11,981 nucleotides of DNA from a virus. Its lineage: Duplodnaviria > Heunggongvirae > Uroviricota > Caudoviricetes. Position numbers and translations under genes: made by a program. Shown here piece by piece: positions 1 to 6,398 of this stretch (position 1 is the first letter of the stretch; each line of letters starts with the position of its first letter). Where the stretch lies: positions 1 through 11,981 of IMG/VR virus record IMGVR_UViG_2606217102_000003. The stretch is one strand, 5' to 3'. The notes under the pieces are model-generated. The model ran no database searches. It saw only the letters and a program-made list of their open reading frames with translations, and was not told the DNA's origin.

Positions 1-22
1 CATGATTGTGTCGAAATCCATA

Positions 23-259
23 TCACTCACCTGAGTTTCTTTCCAGCCAGCGACGGGCACCATTTTCGGTTTTAAACGTTTTGCTTTTGGTATACGTCAT
101 CGCGGTGAACGTACCGTCCTGGTTGGGGAACACGCCACATACCAGAGATTCGTTGTTGCCAAGATCGATAGTATCCATGCTGACCTCATTTCCCCTTAAC
201 GCCGGGGTAGCGGAACAAAAACCTGCTGCATAGTTATTAAAGTTGAACCCTGCCGTCAT
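23..259 (-). CDS. Hypothetical small protein (78 aa); first ORF downstream of the candidate leftward early promoter
   Basis: Complete minus-strand ORF in the track. A GAGG Shine-Dalgarno lies about 10 nt upstream of the ATG (reverse complement of 257-259). Sits directly downstream of the operator-bearing region at 360-404. No family recognised. Confidence 0.4.
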   Translation of the reverse strand: MTAGFNFNNYAAGFCSATPALRGNEVSMDTIDLGNNESLVCGVFPNQDGTFTAMTYTKSKTFKTENGARRWLERNSGE

Positions 260-359
260 GTTCTTACGCCTCGGGCTGGCTACTTAACCCCTGACCACTG
301 CCTGGTAACTCGAGGTATTGCCCTGTATTGTGTGGGACGGGATGGGTTGGTATGGGAAA

Positions 360-404
360 ACTATAGGAAATGCCTAATTACTTGTCAATAGGCTATGCCT
401 AATA
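360..404 (-). promoter_or_regulatory. Candidate leftward early promoter (P_L-like) overlapped by an operator copy
   Basis: On the minus strand: -35 TTGACA (rc of 382-387), 16-bp spacer, -10 TATAGT (rc of 360-365). The 21-bp element ttgtcaataggctatgcctaa (382-402) is the exact reverse complement of 1027-1047 on the other side of the repressor gene. Extra GCCTAAT half-site-like motifs at about 372-378 and 414-421. Confidence 0.45.
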
Positions 405-496
405 ATTTGGGCGCAACCTAATAGGTGATGGTTTGTGGAAGAGGTAGTAGGAGTTAACTAACGGGAACTAGGAATTTCCCGTCGGACCATATAAGT

Positions 497-973
497 TTAA
501 GTTCCTGTCTTGGTGATGTTCTGGCTTTTCCGTTTTGATTCTTGATTTTTCAGATAGTTAGCTACCTTCATTTCCATTGCGGCAATGTAGGCGCGAACGT
601 CATGATCAACCCAACTAGGCTCCGTAGCATTTCCAGATAAGATGAAAGCCACAATTGCTCTTTTTTCATCAGAGGCGGCTTGATAAAGGCTGTTTATGTC
701 TAAAAGTTCACTTTTTGTATCTGAAGTGGATGGGGTTGGTATGGGGTATTCGTTAAGCCCCCAATGCTCTGGACCAACCACATCAGAAAAGAAACGCCAT
801 AGTTCTGGAAGTTTGTCTTTACTTATCGAACCTTTCTTAATCCAGTCATGGATTGATGGTGGTTGGACTTTGAAATGACGTGCGATTTCCGCCTTTGATT
901 TGACGGCTCCTGATGCAATTTTTTTGTTAATGGCCTGCTCTATCGCTCGGCCTAAGTCTTTACCACTAAGCAT
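497..973 (-). CDS. racR: Prophage repressor, RacR-like (CI-type HTH DNA-binding protein, 158 aa)
   Basis: 158-aa ORF with an N-terminal HTH-like segment (SKAEIARHFKVQPPSIHDWIKKG). Divergent from ydaS/ydaT-like genes, the same arrangement as the Rac immunity region. GGAGA RBS upstream of the ATG. Symbol assigned by synteny and length, not by alignment. Confidence 0.75.
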   Translation of the reverse strand: MLSGKDLGRAIEQAINKKIASGAVKSKAEIARHFKVQPPSIHDWIKKGSISKDKLPELWRFFSDVVGPEHWGLNEYPIPTPSTSDTKSELLDINSLYQAASDEKRAIVAFILSGNATEPSWVDHDVRAYIAAMEMKVANYLKNQESKRKSQNITKTGT

Positions 974-1025
974 TGCTTAATAGTCTCCTATGCGCATCGC
1001 GTTAGGCAATCCCTACTCTCGATGT

Positions 1026-1070
1026 ATTAGGCATAGCCTATTGACAATTTCATTAGGCTAAGCCTAATAT
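1026..1070 (+). promoter_or_regulatory. Candidate rightward early promoter (P_R-like) with two palindromic operator sites
   Basis: -35 TTGACA (1042-1047), 17-bp spacer, -10 TAATAT (1065-1070). Near-palindrome ATTAGGCATAGCCTATT (1026-1042) overlaps the -35; perfect palindrome ATTAGGCTAAGCCTAAT (1052-1068) overlaps the spacer and -10. Confidence 0.55.
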
Positions 1071-1097
1071 TGTTGCGTGTTTTTTGGAGTTCATTCG

Positions 1098-1421
1098 ATG
1101 AAAAAAGATAACTATTCATTCAAACGAGCTTGTGCTGTTGTCGGTGGGCAATCAGCAATGGCTAGGCTTTTAGGTGTATCTCCTCCAAGCGTAAATCAAT
1201 GGATCAAAGGTGTACGTCAGTTACCTGCTGAGAGATGTCCTGCGATTGAACGAGCAACAAAAGGTGGTGTCCTGTGTGAAGAACTTCGTCCTGATGTTGA
1301 TTGGACATACTTACGACGCTCGTCATGTTATTCGCAGAATATGTCGATGAAGCAACCAAATGACGAAAACGATCATACCCGAAGCATCAAGAGGCAAATG
1401 ATTCATGAAAATCAAACATGA
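1098..1421 (+). CDS. ydaS: YdaS-like Cro-type HTH protein (107 aa)
   Basis: GGAG RBS at 1086-1089, 8 nt before ATG 1098. Protein begins MKKDNYSFKRACAVVGGQSAMARLLGVSPPSVNQWIKG, which matches my memory of YdaS-family proteins. Positioned as first rightward gene opposite the repressor. The track start at 1077 is probably too far upstream. Confidence 0.75.
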   Translation: MKKDNYSFKRACAVVGGQSAMARLLGVSPPSVNQWIKGVRQLPAERCPAIERATKGGVLCEELRPDVDWTYLRRSSCYSQNMSMKQPNDENDHTRSIKRQMIHENQT

Positions 1422-1830
1422 GCACATCCGCATGGCGATGAATGCCTGGGCATACCCTGATGGTGAGAAAGTTCCTGCAGCTGAAATAGCCCGGACTTAT
1501 TTCGAACTGGGGATGACGTTCCCTGAACTGTATGACGACAGCCATCCGGAAGCCCTGGCTCGCAATACCCAGAAAATTTTCCGCTGGGTAGAGAAAGACA
1601 CCCCTGATGCAGTTGAAAAAATTCAGGCGTTGTTACCAGCGATCGAAAAGGCAATGCCACCTTTGCTGGTGGCCAGAATGCGCAGCCACAGTTCAGCTTA
1701 TTTTCGGGAGCTGGTGGAGATGCGGGAGCGACTGGTGAGAGACGCTGATGATTTTGTCGCAGTGGCAATCGCCGGTTTCAATCAGATGAACCGTGGTGGC
1801 CCGGCAGGAAATGCTGTGGCAGTACATTGA
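1405..1830 (+). CDS. ydaT: YdaT-like protein (141 aa)
   Basis: Overlaps the ydaS-like stop by 17 nt (translational coupling). N-terminus MKIKHEHI and position match the YdaT family as I recall it. Confidence 0.65.
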   Translation: MKIKHEHIRMAMNAWAYPDGEKVPAAEIARTYFELGMTFPELYDDSHPEALARNTQKIFRWVEKDTPDAVEKIQALLPAIEKAMPPLLVARMRSHSSAYFRELVEMRERLVRDADDFVAVAIAGFNQMNRGGPAGNAVAVH

Positions 1831-1895
1831 CTGACAATAGCCATATCGAATCGCTTCCGGCAACTCGTGAGTAAAAAGATTCGGTATCAGAAGAG

Positions 1896-2972
1896 GTGAG
1901 TATGGCTAACGCCTGGCTCAGATTATGGCATGACATGCCAAATGACCCTAAGTGGCGAACAATTGCCAGGGTGTCAGGGCAGCCAATTGCAACAGTGATG
2001 GCAGTGTATATCCACCTCCTGGTGAGCGCGTCACGAAATGTCACGCGAGGTCACATTGATGTCACGACAGAAGATTTGGCAAGTGCGCTCGACGTGACAG
2101 AAGAGGTAATTGATTCAATTTTGCAGACGATGCAGGGGCGGGTACTTGATGGTGATTTAATCACTGGATGGGAAAAACGCCAGGTGCTGAAAGAGGACAA
2201 CGGCAATATTTCGCAAACCGCAAAATCTCCGGCAGAGCGCAAGAGGGCGCAGCGAGAGAGGGAAAGAAAGCGGGAACAAAATGGCGATTGTCACGGCGAG
2301 TCACGAAATGTCACGCACATGTCACGACGAGTCACGACAGATAAAGATACAGATAAAGATACAGATCAAGAAGATCAAAACACTATGGTCCATGGCGTAA
2401 AAAACGCCACGAACCAGGCAGGGGATGTTCAGACCGTCACTCCTGGCCAGCCCGCAGGCACGACACCGGAAGCCGATTCAGCGTATGCGCTGAAAGCCGA
2501 TTCGGGCGCTGTGCAGCAGGTGATGACCGCAAGGCAGGAGCAATCACACCAACTTCAGCAGCCTGAAGCCGATTCCGCCATTCAGCGGGAAGCCGATCGG
2601 GTAGTCCCGGAAAACACCGGGCAGCCTGTGGGACGAGTGGATTATCCTGATGTGTTCGAACAGGTCTGGCGGGAATACCCGTTGCGTGCTGGGGCAAACC
2701 CGAAGAAATCCGCTTTCAGTGCCTGGAAGGCCAGATTACGCGAGGGGGTGTCACCAGAGGCCATGCTGGATGGCGTGAGGCGTTACGCAAGATACCTTGC
2801 GGCTACCGGGAAAACGGGAACGGAATTTGTTCAGCGAGCGACGACGTTTTTTGGACCGGACCGGAATTTTGAAAACCCCTGGCTGCTCCCGGTAAGCGGC
2901 ACGAACAACCAGCGTTGTGTGAATCATATTTCTGAACCGGATACCGAAATTCCACCGGGCTTCAGGGGGTAA
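1896..2972 (+). CDS. Phage replication initiation protein (replisome-organizer-like N-terminus, conserved phage C-terminal domain) with embedded origin repeats
   Basis: GAGGTGA RBS before ATG 1896. N-terminus WLRLWHDMPNDPKWRTIARV...VYIHLL fits the replisome-organizer N-terminal pattern (W-I/L-K/R-L...D-M-F-D-D-E-K). C-terminus FEQVWREYPLRAGANPKKSAFSAWKARL...TFFGPDRNFENPW fits a conserved phage replication C-terminal domain. Iterons lie inside the coding sequence. Confidence 0.7.
   Translation: MSMANAWLRLWHDMPNDPKWRTIARVSGQPIATVMAVYIHLLVSASRNVTRGHIDVTTEDLASALDVTEEVIDSILQTMQGRVLDGDLITGWEKRQVLKEDNGNISQTAKSPAERKRAQRERERKREQNGDCHGESRNVTHMSRRVTTDKDTDKDTDQEDQNTMVHGVKNATNQAGDVQTVTPGQPAGTTPEADSAYALKADSGAVQQVMTARQEQSHQLQQPEADSAIQREADRVVPENTGQPVGRVDYPDVFEQVWREYPLRAGANPKKSAFSAWKARLREGVSPEAMLDGVRRYARYLAATGKTGTEFVQRATTFFGPDRNFENPWLLPVSGTNNQRCVNHISEPDTEIPPGFRG
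2030..2070 (+). repeat. Iteron cluster A: four direct GTCAC(G) repeats at 10-11 bp spacing
   Basis: gtcacgaaat / gtcacgcgag / gtcacattgat / gtcacgacag, read directly from the sequence. An inverted copy gacgtgac lies at 2091-2098. Confidence 0.7.
2290..2340 (+). repeat. Iteron cluster B: five direct TCACG repeats at 10-11 bp spacing
   Basis: TCACG at 2291, 2301, 2311, 2322, 2332 (tgtcacggcgag tcacgaaatg tcacgcacatg tcacgacgag tcacgacag). Immediately followed by an AT-rich repeat. Confidence 0.75.
2339..2385 (+). repeat. AT-rich tandem repeat (agataaagatac x2, then agatcaagaagatcaaaa); candidate DNA-unwinding element
   Basis: Two perfect 12-bp tandem copies followed by related A-rich sequence. 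Encodes the acidic linker DKDTDKDTDQEDQN. Confidence 0.6.
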
Positions 2973-3012
2973 GTGTTGATTTCTGGTCATGAGGTAATTT
3001 TCAGGAGGACTT

Positions 3013-3435
3013 GTGGCAAAAGTTTTTACACAAGAAGAGCGAGAAAAAATTAAAGGGCAGGTTGTTGAACTCGTACGCCAGAGTGGGCGTGAGACGTTAC
3101 GGCAACTGGAAGTCAAGACAGGTGCGACAAGATATCTGATGAGCGTTCTCGCAAGAGAGCTGGTTGCCAGCGGCGATGTATACAACTCTGGTTACGGGTT
3201 ATTCCCGTCTGAACAGGCGCGTAAGGACTGGCAAAATGCCCGTAAAAAGCTCTCAAGGGCAAAGCTGAAGAAACCATCTGCGGTTGATCCGGACCTTATC
3301 TGGTCATTACCTGACGGAGAAATACGTCGCTACGACAGGCGTCAGAACATAATCTGTCGCGAGTGCCGGAAGAGTGAGGTTATGCAGCGTGTGCTGGCAT
3401 TTTATCAGGGTAATTTTCAGGAGGTGATGGCGTGA
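3013..3435 (+). CDS. Hypothetical phage protein (140 aa), possible winged-helix N-terminus
   Basis: AGGAGG RBS at 3002-3007, 5 nt before GTG 3013. No confident family assignment. Confidence 0.5.
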   Translation: MAKVFTQEEREKIKGQVVELVRQSGRETLRQLEVKTGATRYLMSVLARELVASGDVYNSGYGLFPSEQARKDWQNARKKLSRAKLKKPSAVDPDLIWSLPDGEIRRYDRRQNIICRECRKSEVMQRVLAFYQGNFQEVMA

Positions 3436-3728
3436 GGGTGAGGGTTTATATCGCCGGTCCAATGACGGGGTATGAAAATTTCAACCGTGAGGCGTTTCAC
3501 AAGGCAGAAGAGGAACTGAAACGGGAAGGGCATACCGTCTTAAACCCGGCAGTACTTCCGGACGGGCTGACACAGCCGCACTACATGGATATTTGCATGG
3601 CAATGATTCGTTGTGTGGATGCGATTTACATGCTGAAAGGCTGGCAGCGGTCAGCGGGCGCTAAGGCAGAGCTGGCACTGGCGGAGAAACTGGGGCATGC
3701 GGTGATTTATCAGGAGGTGGCTCAATGA
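3432..3728 (+). CDS. DUF4406-like protein (nucleoside 2-deoxyribosyltransferase-like fold), 98 aa
   Basis: N-terminal motif VYIAGPMTGYENFNREAF is characteristic of the DUF4406 family as I recall it. GTG start overlaps the upstream stop (GTGA). Confidence 0.6.
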   Translation: MRVRVYIAGPMTGYENFNREAFHKAEEELKREGHTVLNPAVLPDGLTQPHYMDICMAMIRCVDAIYMLKGWQRSAGAKAELALAEKLGHAVIYQEVAQ

Positions 3729-4186
3729 GAGAGGTTAACTATGAGGCGCTTCGTGAGGCAGCACAAAACTATCAGTCGACGCTGGCGTGGTATCAGGCTA
3801 TCCCGGACAGCCCAAATGCTGAACGGGATTGTGATGCGGCTCTTGCTGCGTTTAAGCGTCATATCCGTCATCGGGAAGCGGATATTATCGCTGATTTGCT
3901 GGATGGACTGGAAGAAGCAAAATCACAACTCAACGAGCAGCGTGAGTATTACGAAGGCGTTATCTCTGATGGGAGCAAGCGTATTGCTGAACTGGAAGCG
4001 CGGGAAGTTCAATTACCGACTCGCTACGACCTTCGATATGGACACCCGATAAATGCAGATGAGCGACATGTCATGATACCTAAAGAAAATGGCAGTTGGC
4101 TTTACCTGATTGACCTAGAACACGCATTACGCGTCGCTGGCATTCGCATCAAAGGAGAGGAGCATGGAAATAAAACCAGAGGATGA
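3725..4186 (+). CDS. Ead/Ea22-like phage protein (153 aa)
   Basis: N-terminus MREVNYEALREAAQNYQ resembles Ea22-like proteins of lambdoid phages. ATG overlaps the upstream stop (ATGA). Confidence 0.55.
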   Translation: MREVNYEALREAAQNYQSTLAWYQAIPDSPNAERDCDAALAAFKRHIRHREADIIADLLDGLEEAKSQLNEQREYYEGVISDGSKRIAELEAREVQLPTRYDLRYGHPINADERHVMIPKENGSWLYLIDLEHALRVAGIRIKGEEHGNKTRG

Positions 4187-4520
4187 GTTAAGCAATATCG
4201 TTTTATTTCCGGTAAAAGAGGATGACCCTCGTAATCAGGTTAATTTTCTTTATGAGCCATCGGAAAGACCATATTGTCATCACGCCTCTGTCCGGGTTGA
4301 CGAAAAAGAGCGTCAGGTCCGCTGTAAAATCTGCGGTGCAGTTGTGGAGCCATTTGACTGGATGCTCTCTGTGGCGAAAAGAGAAACCAGACTGGCAGAT
4401 GATGTAAGGCTCTTGCGTCAGGAGGAGCGGGAAAGGCGAAAAAATATAGAAAAGCTAATTCAGATTGAGCGTAACGCGAAAGCGCGGATACGCAGGGCGA
4501 CAAAATCCAGAACTGAATAA
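4164..4520 (+). CDS. Hypothetical phage protein with putative zinc-ribbon (CHH...CKICG), 118 aa
   Basis: ORF overlaps the upstream gene by 23 nt. Cys/His cluster and basic C-terminal tail. No family recognised. Confidence 0.5.
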   Translation: MEIKPEDELSNIVLFPVKEDDPRNQVNFLYEPSERPYCHHASVRVDEKERQVRCKICGAVVEPFDWMLSVAKRETRLADDVRLLRQEERERRKNIEKLIQIERNAKARIRRATKSRTE

Positions 4521-4608
4521 TTAAATTTAGCTCTGTTAAAAATTTAATCCTTAACCGGAGGGATTTCTGCACCCTCAGAACATCAGGAGGCCGCCTGAAA
4601 GGGCGGTA

Positions 4609-5217
4609 ATGAAAATGACTGAATTAACAAAAGAACAATTAATCGAAGAAGCCAAATTAAAAATAGCGATTACGAAATGCCACCCCAATTCAGGGATGGC
4701 GCGAGTAGAGGGCGAGTTATTCAAAATTGTATTGGCATCGCTGGAAGCAGAGCCAGTGGCATATCAGTATCGCCAGTGGGATGCAGAATATGATGAATGG
4801 GGAGAATGGGAAGATTGCGGGGAATATGCTTTCGAAAGATTTGTTGAGGAAGAGAAATGCCAGGGGGCAGGTGTTCAGACCCGTAAGCTATACGCCACGC
4901 CGCCAATGCTGGTGGTGCCGGATGAACGGGCTGCCTATGAGTTATTTATGGAGAAGCATTTCGGGGATTCTGTAGATCGCCGCAGGGTAAAAAATGGCGG
5001 TAGTGAATACATGGCATGGGATATGGCGATTGGCTGGATTATCTGGTGTCACCGCGCCGCTATGTTTCAGGCCGGAAACTTTCGGAAAAATAAGAATTCG
5101 TCAACCAGCTCCCCGGCAACTCCGGATGATTGGATAAGCTGTAGTGAGCGAATGCCGGATAGCAAAACAGCTGTTCTTGTTGCCAGGGAGTTTGACGGGA
5201 AAGGTGACTGCGAATGA
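4609..5217 (+). CDS. DUF551-like protein, N-terminal part; reading frame appears disrupted at the 3' end
   Basis: C-terminal segment WISCSERMPDSKTAVLV looks like the start of a DUF551 domain. The domain's characteristic ending (HWMPLPEPP) is encoded in a different frame immediately downstream (5214-5336). Confidence 0.55.
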   Translation: MKMTELTKEQLIEEAKLKIAITKCHPNSGMARVEGELFKIVLASLEAEPVAYQYRQWDAEYDEWGEWEDCGEYAFERFVEEEKCQGAGVQTRKLYATPPMLVVPDERAAYELFMEKHFGDSVDRRRVKNGGSEYMAWDMAIGWIIWCHRAAMFQAGNFRKNKNSSTSSPATPDDWISCSERMPDSKTAVLVAREFDGKGDCE

Positions 5218-5336
5218 AGTGGGCGACTTACATACCGGGACATCCTGATGCTAATGATGGTTGGATAATTCCTGGTGCGTCGTGGATTCCATCACACTGG
5301 ATGCCGCTACCAGAACCGCCGCAGGAGGCGAAATGA
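5214..5336 (+). CDS. DUF551 C-terminal fragment (40 aa) in an alternative frame; likely the detached 3' part of the upstream gene
   Basis: Translates to MKWATYIPGHPDANDGWIIPGASWIPSHWMPLPEPPQEAK. This frame has a stop at 5205-5207, so the junction lies within 5208-5217. Confidence 0.4.
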   Translation: MKWATYIPGHPDANDGWIIPGASWIPSHWMPLPEPPQEAK

Positions 5337-5596
5337 TGGATGTAGAAGAGAAGGTTTTGCAGGTGATGCGTTCCCGTGCTGCCCTACAAGAGAAAGCTCT
5401 CGGTGGTGAATATCCATTCACGATAGCAACCTGGAATCTGCGGTTGGCAATGGAGAAGGAATTTCCTGATGAAGAATGGCGTTCGGCAGATTTGCGCAAA
5501 ATTCTTATAGAGATGGCTAAAGACGGAAAAGTATCCAAAGATACCCATGCCAGCCGGATTGGTCAGGCGGTATGGAGACTGGAGGCGAGGCAATGA
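5333..5596 (+). CDS. Hypothetical small protein (87 aa)
   Basis: ATG 5333 overlaps the stop of the DUF551 fragment (ATGA). The track ORF 5261-5596 shares this frame; the internal ATG is the more plausible start. Confidence 0.45.
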   Translation: MMDVEEKVLQVMRSRAALQEKALGGEYPFTIATWNLRLAMEKEFPDEEWRSADLRKILIEMAKDGKVSKDTHASRIGQAVWRLEARQ

Positions 5597-5676
5597 GCTG
5601 GCCTGAAGCATTCACAACGGTAGGAACTGCAATGGCGGTTGCGCTGGTGGTGTATTCGATTTGCCGCTGGGGATAA
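5593..5676 (+). CDS. Possible 27-aa hydrophobic peptide (MSWPEAFTTVGTAMAVALVVYSICRWG)
   Basis: ATG overlaps the upstream stop (ATGA). One predicted transmembrane helix. Too short for the ORF track; hand-translated. Confidence 0.25.
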   Translation: MSWPEAFTTVGTAMAVALVVYSICRWG

Positions 5677-5685
5677 ATCGCCGAA

Positions 5686-5725
5686 AAAAGATCCCGACAC
5701 AAACATGAGCTGGGATCTTTGATTT
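5686..5725. terminator. Hairpin terminator, probably bidirectional, between the rightward accessory operon and the antisense parDE pair
   Basis: aaagatccc (16-nt loop) gggatcttt; 9-bp stem flanked by an A-run on the plus side (T6 on the minus strand) and a T-rich tail. A second hairpin tccgcc...ggcgga at about 5741-5764 is followed by tttatt. Confidence 0.5.
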
Positions 5726-5800
5726 ATATAGCCTACGAATCCGCCAGTAAGAGAGGGGGCGGACGGTTTATTCTAACACCGGAATGATGTGGGTAAAAGT

Positions 5801-6100
5801 TTATAAGAAATCGGTTTCATAACTTTGCCCACCATGATAGATACCGACAATAAAGACTTTTCTGCCATCAACGGCAAAAGCAATAATCGTTCTGTGGCGG
5901 AAATGAGTTACCCGCATCCCCTGGCGAATATCATCGCGTTTATTGCCCCGATGCGGGAATGTAGAAAACCCATCAAGATAATCAAGAAGCGCATTGGCAT
6001 AATTGTCAGCAATGACGCTTCCTGCTTTCTCCGTTATGTATCTGTGCAGGTTGATTATCTGCTGTTCGGCCTCAGGAGTAATGATGACTTCATATGTCAT
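5801..6100 (-). CDS. parE: ParE/RelE-superfamily toxin (99 aa)
   Basis: MTYEVIITPEAEQQI...IIAFAVDGRKVFIVGIYHGGQSYETDF fits ParE-family toxins. Start placed at the internal ATG (rc of 6098-6100), 5 nt downstream of the antitoxin stop. The track ORF extends further upstream and would overlap the antitoxin. Confidence 0.75.
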   Translation of the reverse strand: MTYEVIITPEAEQQIINLHRYITEKAGSVIADNYANALLDYLDGFSTFPHRGNKRDDIRQGMRVTHFRHRTIIAFAVDGRKVFIVGIYHGGQSYETDFL

Positions 6101-6105
6101 GCAGA

Positions 6106-6363
6106 TTACTTCCCGGATCGAATCGCAGCGCGAACCTGTGAAATGGAGCGTCCGTTGTTCGGGTTTTTGCGGATTGAATCCAGGGAGGGGGCGGCTGAAT
6201 GCGTTAACCACGCTTCGATTGCTTTATCGCGCTCATTCAGTGCGCGAAGCCCTTCACGAATGACCTCGCTTTCTGAAGCATAGGCACCGGAAGCCACACG
6301 GGCGCGCACCATGTCAGCCATCTCGTTAGTTAATGTAATGCTGAATTGTTGGGTTGTACGCAT
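6106..6363 (-). CDS. parD: ParD-family (ribbon-helix-helix) antitoxin (85 aa)
   Basis: FSITLTNEMADMVRARVASGAYASESEVIREGLRALNERDKAIEAW matches the ParD/COG3609 pattern. GAGG RBS upstream of ATG (rc of 6361-6363). Antitoxin-then-toxin order. Confidence 0.7.
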   Translation of the reverse strand: MRTTQQFSITLTNEMADMVRARVASGAYASESEVIREGLRALNERDKAIEAWLTHSAAPSLDSIRKNPNNGRSISQVRAAIRSGK

Positions 6364-6398
6364 GGTAAACCTCAAGGAGTAGGATAGAACACTATTCG

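Follow-up and report, generated by a model that had tools for sequence, protein, structure and literature searches.

A probable replication origin inside the initiator gene of a lambdoid Escherichia coli prophage

Repeat arrays within the initiator gene

We analyzed a stretch of 11,981 nucleotides (nt) from a Caudoviricetes record of IMG/VR (IMGVR_UViG_2606217102_000003, positions 1 to 11,981), referred to below as the window. The gene at 1902-2972 encodes a replication initiator and carries two arrays of short, helically phased repeats (iterons), the second of which is followed directly by an A+T- and purine-rich tract and an inverted repeat. As judged from the sequence, this region is very likely the theta-type replication origin of a lambdoid Escherichia coli prophage, lying inside the gene of its own initiator. 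The features concerned are the following.

1902-2972, + strand: initiator gene, 356 amino acids (aa), 'phage replisome organizer' (open reading frame and translation; start ATG at 1902)
1902-2186, + strand: DNA coding for the N-terminal winged-helix domain (N-domain), aa 1-95
2030-2066, + strand: iteron cluster A, four GTCAC(G) starting at 2030, 2040, 2050 and 2061; codons 43-55
2093-2098, - strand: inverted iteron copy, GTCACG; codons 64-66 (DVT)
2290-2336, + strand: iteron cluster B, five GTCACG starting at 2290, 2300, 2310, 2321 and 2331; linker codons 130-145
2337-2385, + strand: A+T- and purine-rich tandem repeat, ACAGATAAAGAT x2.9 and then AGATCAAGAAGATCAAAAC; encodes the acidic linker DKDTDKDTDQEDQ
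2386-2416, no strand assigned: imperfect inverted repeat, TGGTCCATGGCGT-AAAAA-ACGCCACGAACCA, adjoining the end of the AT-rich tract
2634-2969, + strand: DNA coding for a domain like the C-terminal domain (CTD) of DnaT, with a SEPDTEIPPGFRG tail (homologue profile match)

A preliminary description of this DNA had proposed a candidate origin within the initiator gene, with four GTCAC(G) repeats in cluster A and five in cluster B at a spacing of 10-11 nt. Both clusters were found as described, whereas the inverted copy on the minus strand at 2093-2098 had been overlooked. The complete word GTCACG is present in three of the four copies of cluster A and all five of cluster B (8/9 together), and the start-to-start spacings are 10, 10 and 11 nt in cluster A and 10, 10, 11 and 10 nt in cluster B. 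The inverted copy is kept as GACGTGAC in most GTCACG-type homologues, the V65 codon always being GTG. The window contains GTCACG 14 times against 4.6 ± 1.95 expected, a count that 0 of 200 shuffles reached. When chains were defined as copies of one 5-mer at 9-12 nt spacing and the whole window was shuffled 1000 times with dinucleotides preserved, the longest chain had three members, compared with the five and four observed. The 5-mer chain scan revealed no phased repeats elsewhere in the window, and hence no second candidate origin. By analogy with known origins, cluster B is presumed to be the core initiator-binding array of the predicted origin.

Tandem Repeats Finder called 2.9 copies of ACAGATAAAGAT at 2337-2371, directly adjoining cluster B. 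The G+C content at 2340-2379 was only 0.275, and on nearest-neighbour energy 2337-2386 ranked as the third least stable 50-mer of the 12-kb window (0.17% of windows were less stable). A tandem repeat and A-rich sequence directly after cluster B had been noted before, and the label 'AT-rich' agrees with the low stability measured here; it is incomplete, because a purine strand bias is equally conserved. In relatives, the 30 nt past the last iteron had an A+T content of 0.64 versus 0.40 in the rest of the gene (higher in 64 of 65 loci) and a purine content on the coding strand of 0.81 versus 0.54 (65 loci). Since the tract becomes AGAGGAGAGGAG in G+C-rich hosts, the purine bias is as conserved as the A+T richness. 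From its composition, 2337-2385 is presumed to be a DNA unwinding element (DUE).

As single-stranded DNA (ssDNA), the inverted repeat at 2386-2416 folded with -8.7 kcal/mol versus -3.7 ± 1.6 kcal/mol for shuffles (z -3.1). Most relatives carry a hairpin-forming inverted repeat after the AT/purine tract, 30-65 nt past the last iteron; examples are loci L091, L105, L131, L136, L099, L107, L122, L134, L141 and L168. Perfect hairpin stems within 110 nt past the last iteron averaged 5.95 nt in relatives and 5.07 nt in control windows from the same genes (p=2e-8). Stems vary among loci and loops recur, either as the tetraloops TGAC, TAAC and TGGC or as the 11-nt loop TCACTACGTTC. Some loops code for conserved peptides (SLRS; PPxPPxGG built from CCCCCC...GGGGG), and selection at the DNA level and at the peptide level is entangled here. 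The hairpin is a possible third origin element. Reading 2386-2416 as a minus-strand terminator was rejected, since in G+C-rich relatives the tract beyond it is CT-rich and has no T run.

The initiator protein

A GTG at 1896 lies in frame with the initiator open reading frame, and a GAGG ribosome-binding site is present at 1893-1896. The protein matched phrog_3729, 'replication initiation protein', end to end (E 2e-256); its NCBI name is 'phage replisome organizer', and its 90% cluster comprises 5786 sequences. Weaker 'replisome organizer' matches were obtained to phrog_4880 (E 6.6e-6) and phrog_5968 (E 1e-4). The match to TIGR01714, which with PF09681 represents the N-terminal domain of phage replisome organizers, was weak (15.5 bits against a cut-off of 49.8, E 0.015), yet it spanned the full profile (1-119 of 119). 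No Pfam family, Phage_rep_O included, matched the initiator at E<=0.01.

An AlphaFold2 model divided the protein into a confident N-domain (aa 1-95), a basic helix (110-126), a disordered linker (127-244) and a confident C-domain (245-332), with a predicted local distance difference test score (pLDDT) of 79-95 across aa 251-330. The N-domain has a winged-helix fold that matches the DnaD N-domain and a plasmid initiator, and it is presumed to be the iteron-binding domain. A profile built from 31 homologues matched the DnaT CTD in the PDB, with E 4.6e-7 over about 100 positions for 6aep, 5e-5 for 2ru8 and 1.9e-4 for 9zbt, and the alignment included the terminal SEPDxxIPPGFRG. Relatives carry PF17948. 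The match to NF002770, the DnaT equivalog, reached 18.3 bits against a cut-off of 201 and covered the last 24 residues only; thus, the initiator is not a full-length member of the DnaT family. The C-domain is presumed to bind ssDNA and to recruit the host primosome.

Selection on the repeats at the DNA level

The nine GTCAC copies are spread over all three reading frames. In 22 homologues from different species, whose N-domains are 53-75% identical, the entropy of third codon positions was 0.20 bit inside the cluster A cores versus 1.41 bit in other conserved codons (Mann-Whitney p=1.7e-6). The core codons V47 (GTC), T48 (ACG) and H51 (CAC) were invariant, whereas the spacer codon R49 had an entropy of 1.74 bit.

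Repeat number was compared across related prophages, a check that had been put forward with the original proposal. In 73 E. coli loci from IMG/VR the number of iterons was constant, cluster B always having five, and almost all substitutions fell in spacers; in L076 and L084 one cluster B core had changed from GTCAC to ATCAC. The AT-rich 12-mer/6-mer repeat varied in copy number among these loci, giving proteins of 354-364 aa. For contrast, the gene contains another repeat, AAGCCGAT, in four copies at 2470, 2494, 2566 and 2590 (to 2597). These stand strictly in one frame, encode [EK]ADS/R within the disordered linker and look like a peptide-level repeat. The earlier remarks on the protein, namely recurring S-R-x-V-T residues and an acidic linker, were correct, as the translation shows SRNVTRGHIDVTT, ESRNVTHMSRRVTT and DKDTDKDTDQEDQ. 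These results indicate that the GTCAC(G) repeats act as DNA elements under DNA-level selection.

Conservation of the arrays in relatives

A total of 78 loci from species-representative genomes were scanned with a custom chain-based array detector. A phased array of at least three copies was found in the linker codons of 72 of them, so that the repeats are retained in otherwise conserved homologues; their absence there had been named beforehand as evidence against an origin. The word of the linker array recurred, phased, in the N-domain codons of 47 loci, and 25 had the linker array alone. Agreement between arrays was taken from an NNNAC contingency table. Where both arrays had at least three copies, the words were identical in 40 of 44 loci (GTCAC 28, CGAAC 8, GCAAC 3, GTAAC 1), and three of the four mismatches paired GTCAC with its reverse complement GTGAC. 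The word varies from lineage to lineage (GTCACG, GTAACG, CGAACGC or GCAACGC), and NNNACG(C) is common to all.

Homologues with arrays occur in E. coli, Pseudomonas, Aeromonas, Ralstonia and many other Proteobacteria of the Gamma, Beta and Alpha classes, with hosts from Enterobacterales to Burkholderiales and Sphingomonadales. The initiators of Pseudomonas phage phi1 and Aeromonas phage pAEv1818 are 70% identical to that of the window over aa 1-138 only; their C-domains and downstream genes differ. In cluster A both have four copies plus the inverted one, and in cluster B phi1 has four and pAEv1818 three, followed by tataaagatacagaagaag in phi1 and (GATAAA)n in pAEv1818. A Manatee Spring podovirus (L004) carries three copies of CGAACGC in N-domain codons and four to five in the linker, followed by agataaagaagaagaag, and Ralstonia phage Hennie (L005) carries GCAACG x4 and x4, then a purine tract. 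Thus, the repeat word co-varies between the clusters and tracks the initiator N-domain irrespective of the C-domain or the neighbouring genes.

In three loci of Pantoea, Enterobacter and Erwinia (L108, L111 and L113) the linker arrays consist of overlapping words with a 5-nt period, GTCACGTCACGTCAC. L108 and L111 mix GTAAC and GTCAC in one array, which suggests that the third base is loosely read there.

A search of plasmids for a minimal replicon of this kind yielded none; the matches were large plasmids, chromosomes and phage-sized circles. Two 50.9-kb P. aeruginosa 'plasmids' of PLSDB (CP137943.1 and CP124671.1) with a phi1-type initiator look, from size and content, like circular D3-like phage genomes filed as plasmids.

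Cluster A within a folded domain

In the model, codons 43-55 correspond to the end of helix 29-45 and the loop/strand ahead of helix 56-63. No AT-rich neighbour adjoins cluster A itself. In the E. albertii locus L090 the cluster A loop is longer by seven codons (21 nt, two iterons) and contains six phased copies; loops were also longer by seven codons in L108, L111 and L113 and by about 14 codons in L126. The unit of insertion, seven codons, equals 21 nt and two iterons at 10.5 nt, so that iterons are gained and the frame is kept. In a Xanthomonadales-type group (L140, L143, L145, L146 and L149) the second array stands at gene nt ~66-107, on an inserted 'SR(N/K)VT(V/I)(G/A)' segment between helices 16-25 and 29-45. 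The usual cluster A loop has no iterons in this group; that is, the array is relocated within the gene. Cluster A thus behaves as a second array that can move and can be dispensed with, needed by the DNA and fitted by the protein where possible. It is probably an accessory initiator-binding array; its possible roles are those of an enhancer, a partner in looping, an autoregulatory roadblock or a sink that holds initiator locally.

It is doubtful that the cluster A codons also specify the sequence-reading residues of the initiator, in which case one base change would alter both the site and its reader. In the close clade, the only columns that distinguish initiators of the GTCACG type from those of the CGAACGC type lie in the cluster-A-encoded loop and in aa 101-110, a basic segment adjoining cluster B; no type-specific residue occurs in the wing or in the putative recognition helix (67-77). 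Weighing against the idea, distant relatives combine GTCAC words with unrelated loop sequences. If it were true, it would offer a self-referential route to new replicon specificities.

A model of origin function

The proposal of an origin within the initiator gene is supported by the phasing of the repeats, the constraint on synonymous sites, the co-variation of the arrays, the presumed unwinding tract and the conservation in homologues. Cluster B with the AT tract is best read, by analogy with known origins, as the origin core. The steps of initiator binding, melting and helicase recruitment, and the role of cluster A, would then be as follows. Winged-helix N-domains would bind the phased GTCACG words, five in cluster B and four plus one inverted in the cluster A region, and oligomerisation on cluster B would bend or wrap the DNA. 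The nucleoprotein complex, together with negative supercoiling, would open the low-stability, purine-rich ACAGATAAAGAT repeat at 2337-2385. The long disordered linker would tether the DnaT-CTD-like C-domains, which would coat the exposed strand and thereby mark it as the place where DnaC loads host DnaB; one possible route to DnaB/DnaC is co-filamentation with host DnaT. Cluster A may raise the local concentration of initiator, form a loop with cluster B or serve autoregulation of the gene. Between the initiator and the Q-like antiterminator gene (8194-8748), neither a helicase gene nor a helicase-loader gene was found, and because the window encodes neither, host DnaB/DnaC must be recruited.

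Several points weigh against an origin of this kind. The unwinding tract is short, about 45 bp, and its composition is owed partly to the coding of an acidic/basic linker. The initiator is without the N-domain of DnaT, the presumed recruiter of DnaB/DnaC, and for this reason the helicase-loading step is conjecture. Cluster A is absent in 25 of the 72 relatives and is therefore not essential to the origin function of the family. DnaA boxes were not found in 1800-3100 and are at chance level in the window as a whole, which we judge neutral. Literature searches for these iterons found nothing, although an earlier in-silico mention is possible: no paper pairing 'GTCACG' with 'iteron' was found, papers pairing 'replisome organizer' with 'iterons' concern other families, and the Eru paper on replication regions of non-lambdoid Shiga toxin (Stx) phages describes neither this type nor its repeats.

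Alternative explanations

The alternative that survives best, itself unlikely, is that the arrays are operators at which the initiator or another phage regulator, bound inside the gene, acts as an autoregulatory roadblock or times expression, replication starting elsewhere. In iteron plasmids, secondary arrays have a control function, and cluster A would suit such a role: it is found within the first third of the coding sequence, accompanied by an inverted copy, has no AT-rich neighbour and is dispensable in a third of relatives, as a regulatory accessory would be. However, cluster B is always joined to a low-stability, purine-rich tract that would be superfluous for an operator, the window offers no other phased-repeat candidate origin, and the layout fits two proven origins (PMC7466680, PMC5737612). 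Autoregulation and origin function are, moreover, mutually compatible.

Less probable is binding of the repeats by another protein, such as the cII-like YdaT, a host factor or the DUF977 protein. Within genes, lambda CII recognizes direct repeats spaced by 10 nt, and the initiator here has YdaT-like and DUF977 genes on its flanks. Nevertheless, the arrays accompany the N-domain in phi1, pAEv1818, the Manatee podovirus and Hennie, which have no YdaT/DUF977 neighbours, DUF977 also adjoins other initiator types, and a host range from Enterobacterales to Sphingomonadales speaks against a single host factor.

That the repeats have no function as DNA and are a by-product of the S-R-x-V-T peptide motif, or of slippage in a low-complexity linker, is scarcely credible: the peptide SRNVT does recur, the linker is disordered and tolerant of change, and the adjoining 12-mer varies in copy number like slippage-prone DNA, but the copies stand in different frames and hence encode different peptides, synonymous sites are frozen in the cores and free in the spacers, the 10/11-nt phasing is kept across genera with the word changing jointly in both arrays, and in E. 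coli the AT repeat varies but the number of iterons does not.

A packaging site was likewise considered and rejected because of the early-operon position and the tie to the initiator.

Comparison with known origins

The location of the lambda origin inside gene O is an experimentally proven layout of an initiator-gene origin (PMC7466680). Like the window, the lambda type has four to six phased iterons with an AT-rich tract downstream (PMC7466680). In lambda O, as well as in the Stx phages 933W and P27, the origin is also mid-gene, in DNA that codes for the linker between a DNA-binding N-domain and a partner-binding C-domain, and the gene likewise stands in a pR-type operon after cro and cII. 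The lambda iteron is a 19-bp inverted repeat recurring at about 20-23 bp, whereas the iteron core of the window has 6-7 nt and recurs at one helical turn. The window further differs in having a second array in N-domain codons and a DnaT-like C-domain, and no P-type loader gene follows. The likeness to lambda drawn in the preliminary description therefore holds for the layout; it does not extend to homology with O, since no Pfam match, Phage_rep_O included, relates the two sequences.

In SPP1, oriL lies in gene 38, with AB-box direct repeats and an adjacent AT-rich DUE within the organizer gene, and a fragment of oriL measuring 356 bp is both required and sufficient in vitro (PMC5737612, PMC6316719). 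In our data set, SPP1 gene 38 (L169 8935-9027, gene nt ~355-410) contains repeats GAAACGACA/GAAAAAGACAC with a period of about 11 nt and, after them, three copies of AACAATGATAACAA, which is the same order of elements at the same mid-gene position as in the window. A comparison of the N-domain profile with SPP1 G38P gave no homology (hhalign probability 0.1%, E 0.42). SPP1 differs in that its second binding region, oriR, is 13 kb away, compared with 260 bp for the second array of the window, and in encoding its own loader G39P and helicase G40P, neither of which the window has.

The RepA_N plasmid initiators (for example staphylococcal pSK41/pTZ2162 RepA, PDB 4pta) and DnaD had no sequence-level match to the window initiator; RepA_N systems belong to Gram-positive plasmids and have other C-domains, whereas the window is from a Proteobacterial prophage. 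E. coli DnaT (primosomal protein I) resembles the initiator in about 100 aligned aa of the CTD and in the acidic linker ahead of it, and its CTD forms filaments on ssDNA that mark the site of helicase loading (PMC13377028). The homology is at the domain level only, an origin-binding winged helix (predicted) replacing the DnaT N-domain. Bipartite iteron systems (P4 ori and crr; the secondary arrays of P1, F and R6K) have a second array of the same word away from the core origin. In the window, by contrast, the second array is about 260 bp away and within codons of the initiator's own folded domain.

An iteron/DUE origin inside an initiator gene is thus of a textbook kind. The second array in folded-domain codons, the 21-nt/7-codon units and the conserved hairpin go beyond that paradigm. 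They provide a clean natural case of a second, DNA-level code in coding sequence, in which units of 21 nt (seven codons) let iterons recur every 10.5 nt while codons keep their period of 3 nt. The initiator is very common, with N-domain relatives in prophages of E. coli O157, and the origins of these replicons are apparently unmapped. The comparative rule, by which linker codons contain a phased NNNACG(C) array followed by a purine/AT tract and a hairpin in that order, predicts origins for hundreds of prophages and sorts them into replicon specificity types. The combination of an origin-binding domain and a DnaT CTD in one protein, with no loader from the phage, points to a way in which phages could enter the host restart primosome pathway. 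Practical uses would include minimal replicons, incompatibility-based curing of prophages and sparing of the origin when the gene is recoded.

Genomic setting

The following features surround the initiator gene.

497-973, - strand: leftward open reading frame in repressor position; no family match; a CI repressor is annotated there in phage Tritos
1041-1070, + strand: pR-like promoter candidate, TTGACA-18-TAATAT, in the cI/cro intergenic region (consensus scan only)
1077-1421: YdaS/Cro-like gene, upstream of the initiator
1405-1830: YdaT/cII-like gene, upstream of the initiator
3013-3435: DUF977 gene ('LygF'/'Ren-like'), downstream of the initiator

Transcription from the pR-like candidate would cover the cro-like, cII-like and initiator genes and with them the origin. 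The E. coli phages Tritos, Evi and vB_EcoS-640R1 share 96-99% identity with the DNA of the window, and the annotation of Tritos gives the same gene order (CI / Cro / Rha-like / replication protein).

An Rfam scan detected two tRNAs in the window and nothing in the origin region. These are phage genes for tRNA-Met (CAT) at 10427-10502 and tRNA-Arg (TCT) at 10600-10676, and a DNA methylase gene (9328-10377) lies upstream of them. The initiator gene's final ~60 nt and the start of DUF977 (within 2910-3435) are about 92% identical in HannyBb, PhiR42_1 and mEp460, which have other initiator types; the C-terminal tail with DUF977 may be an exchangeable module.

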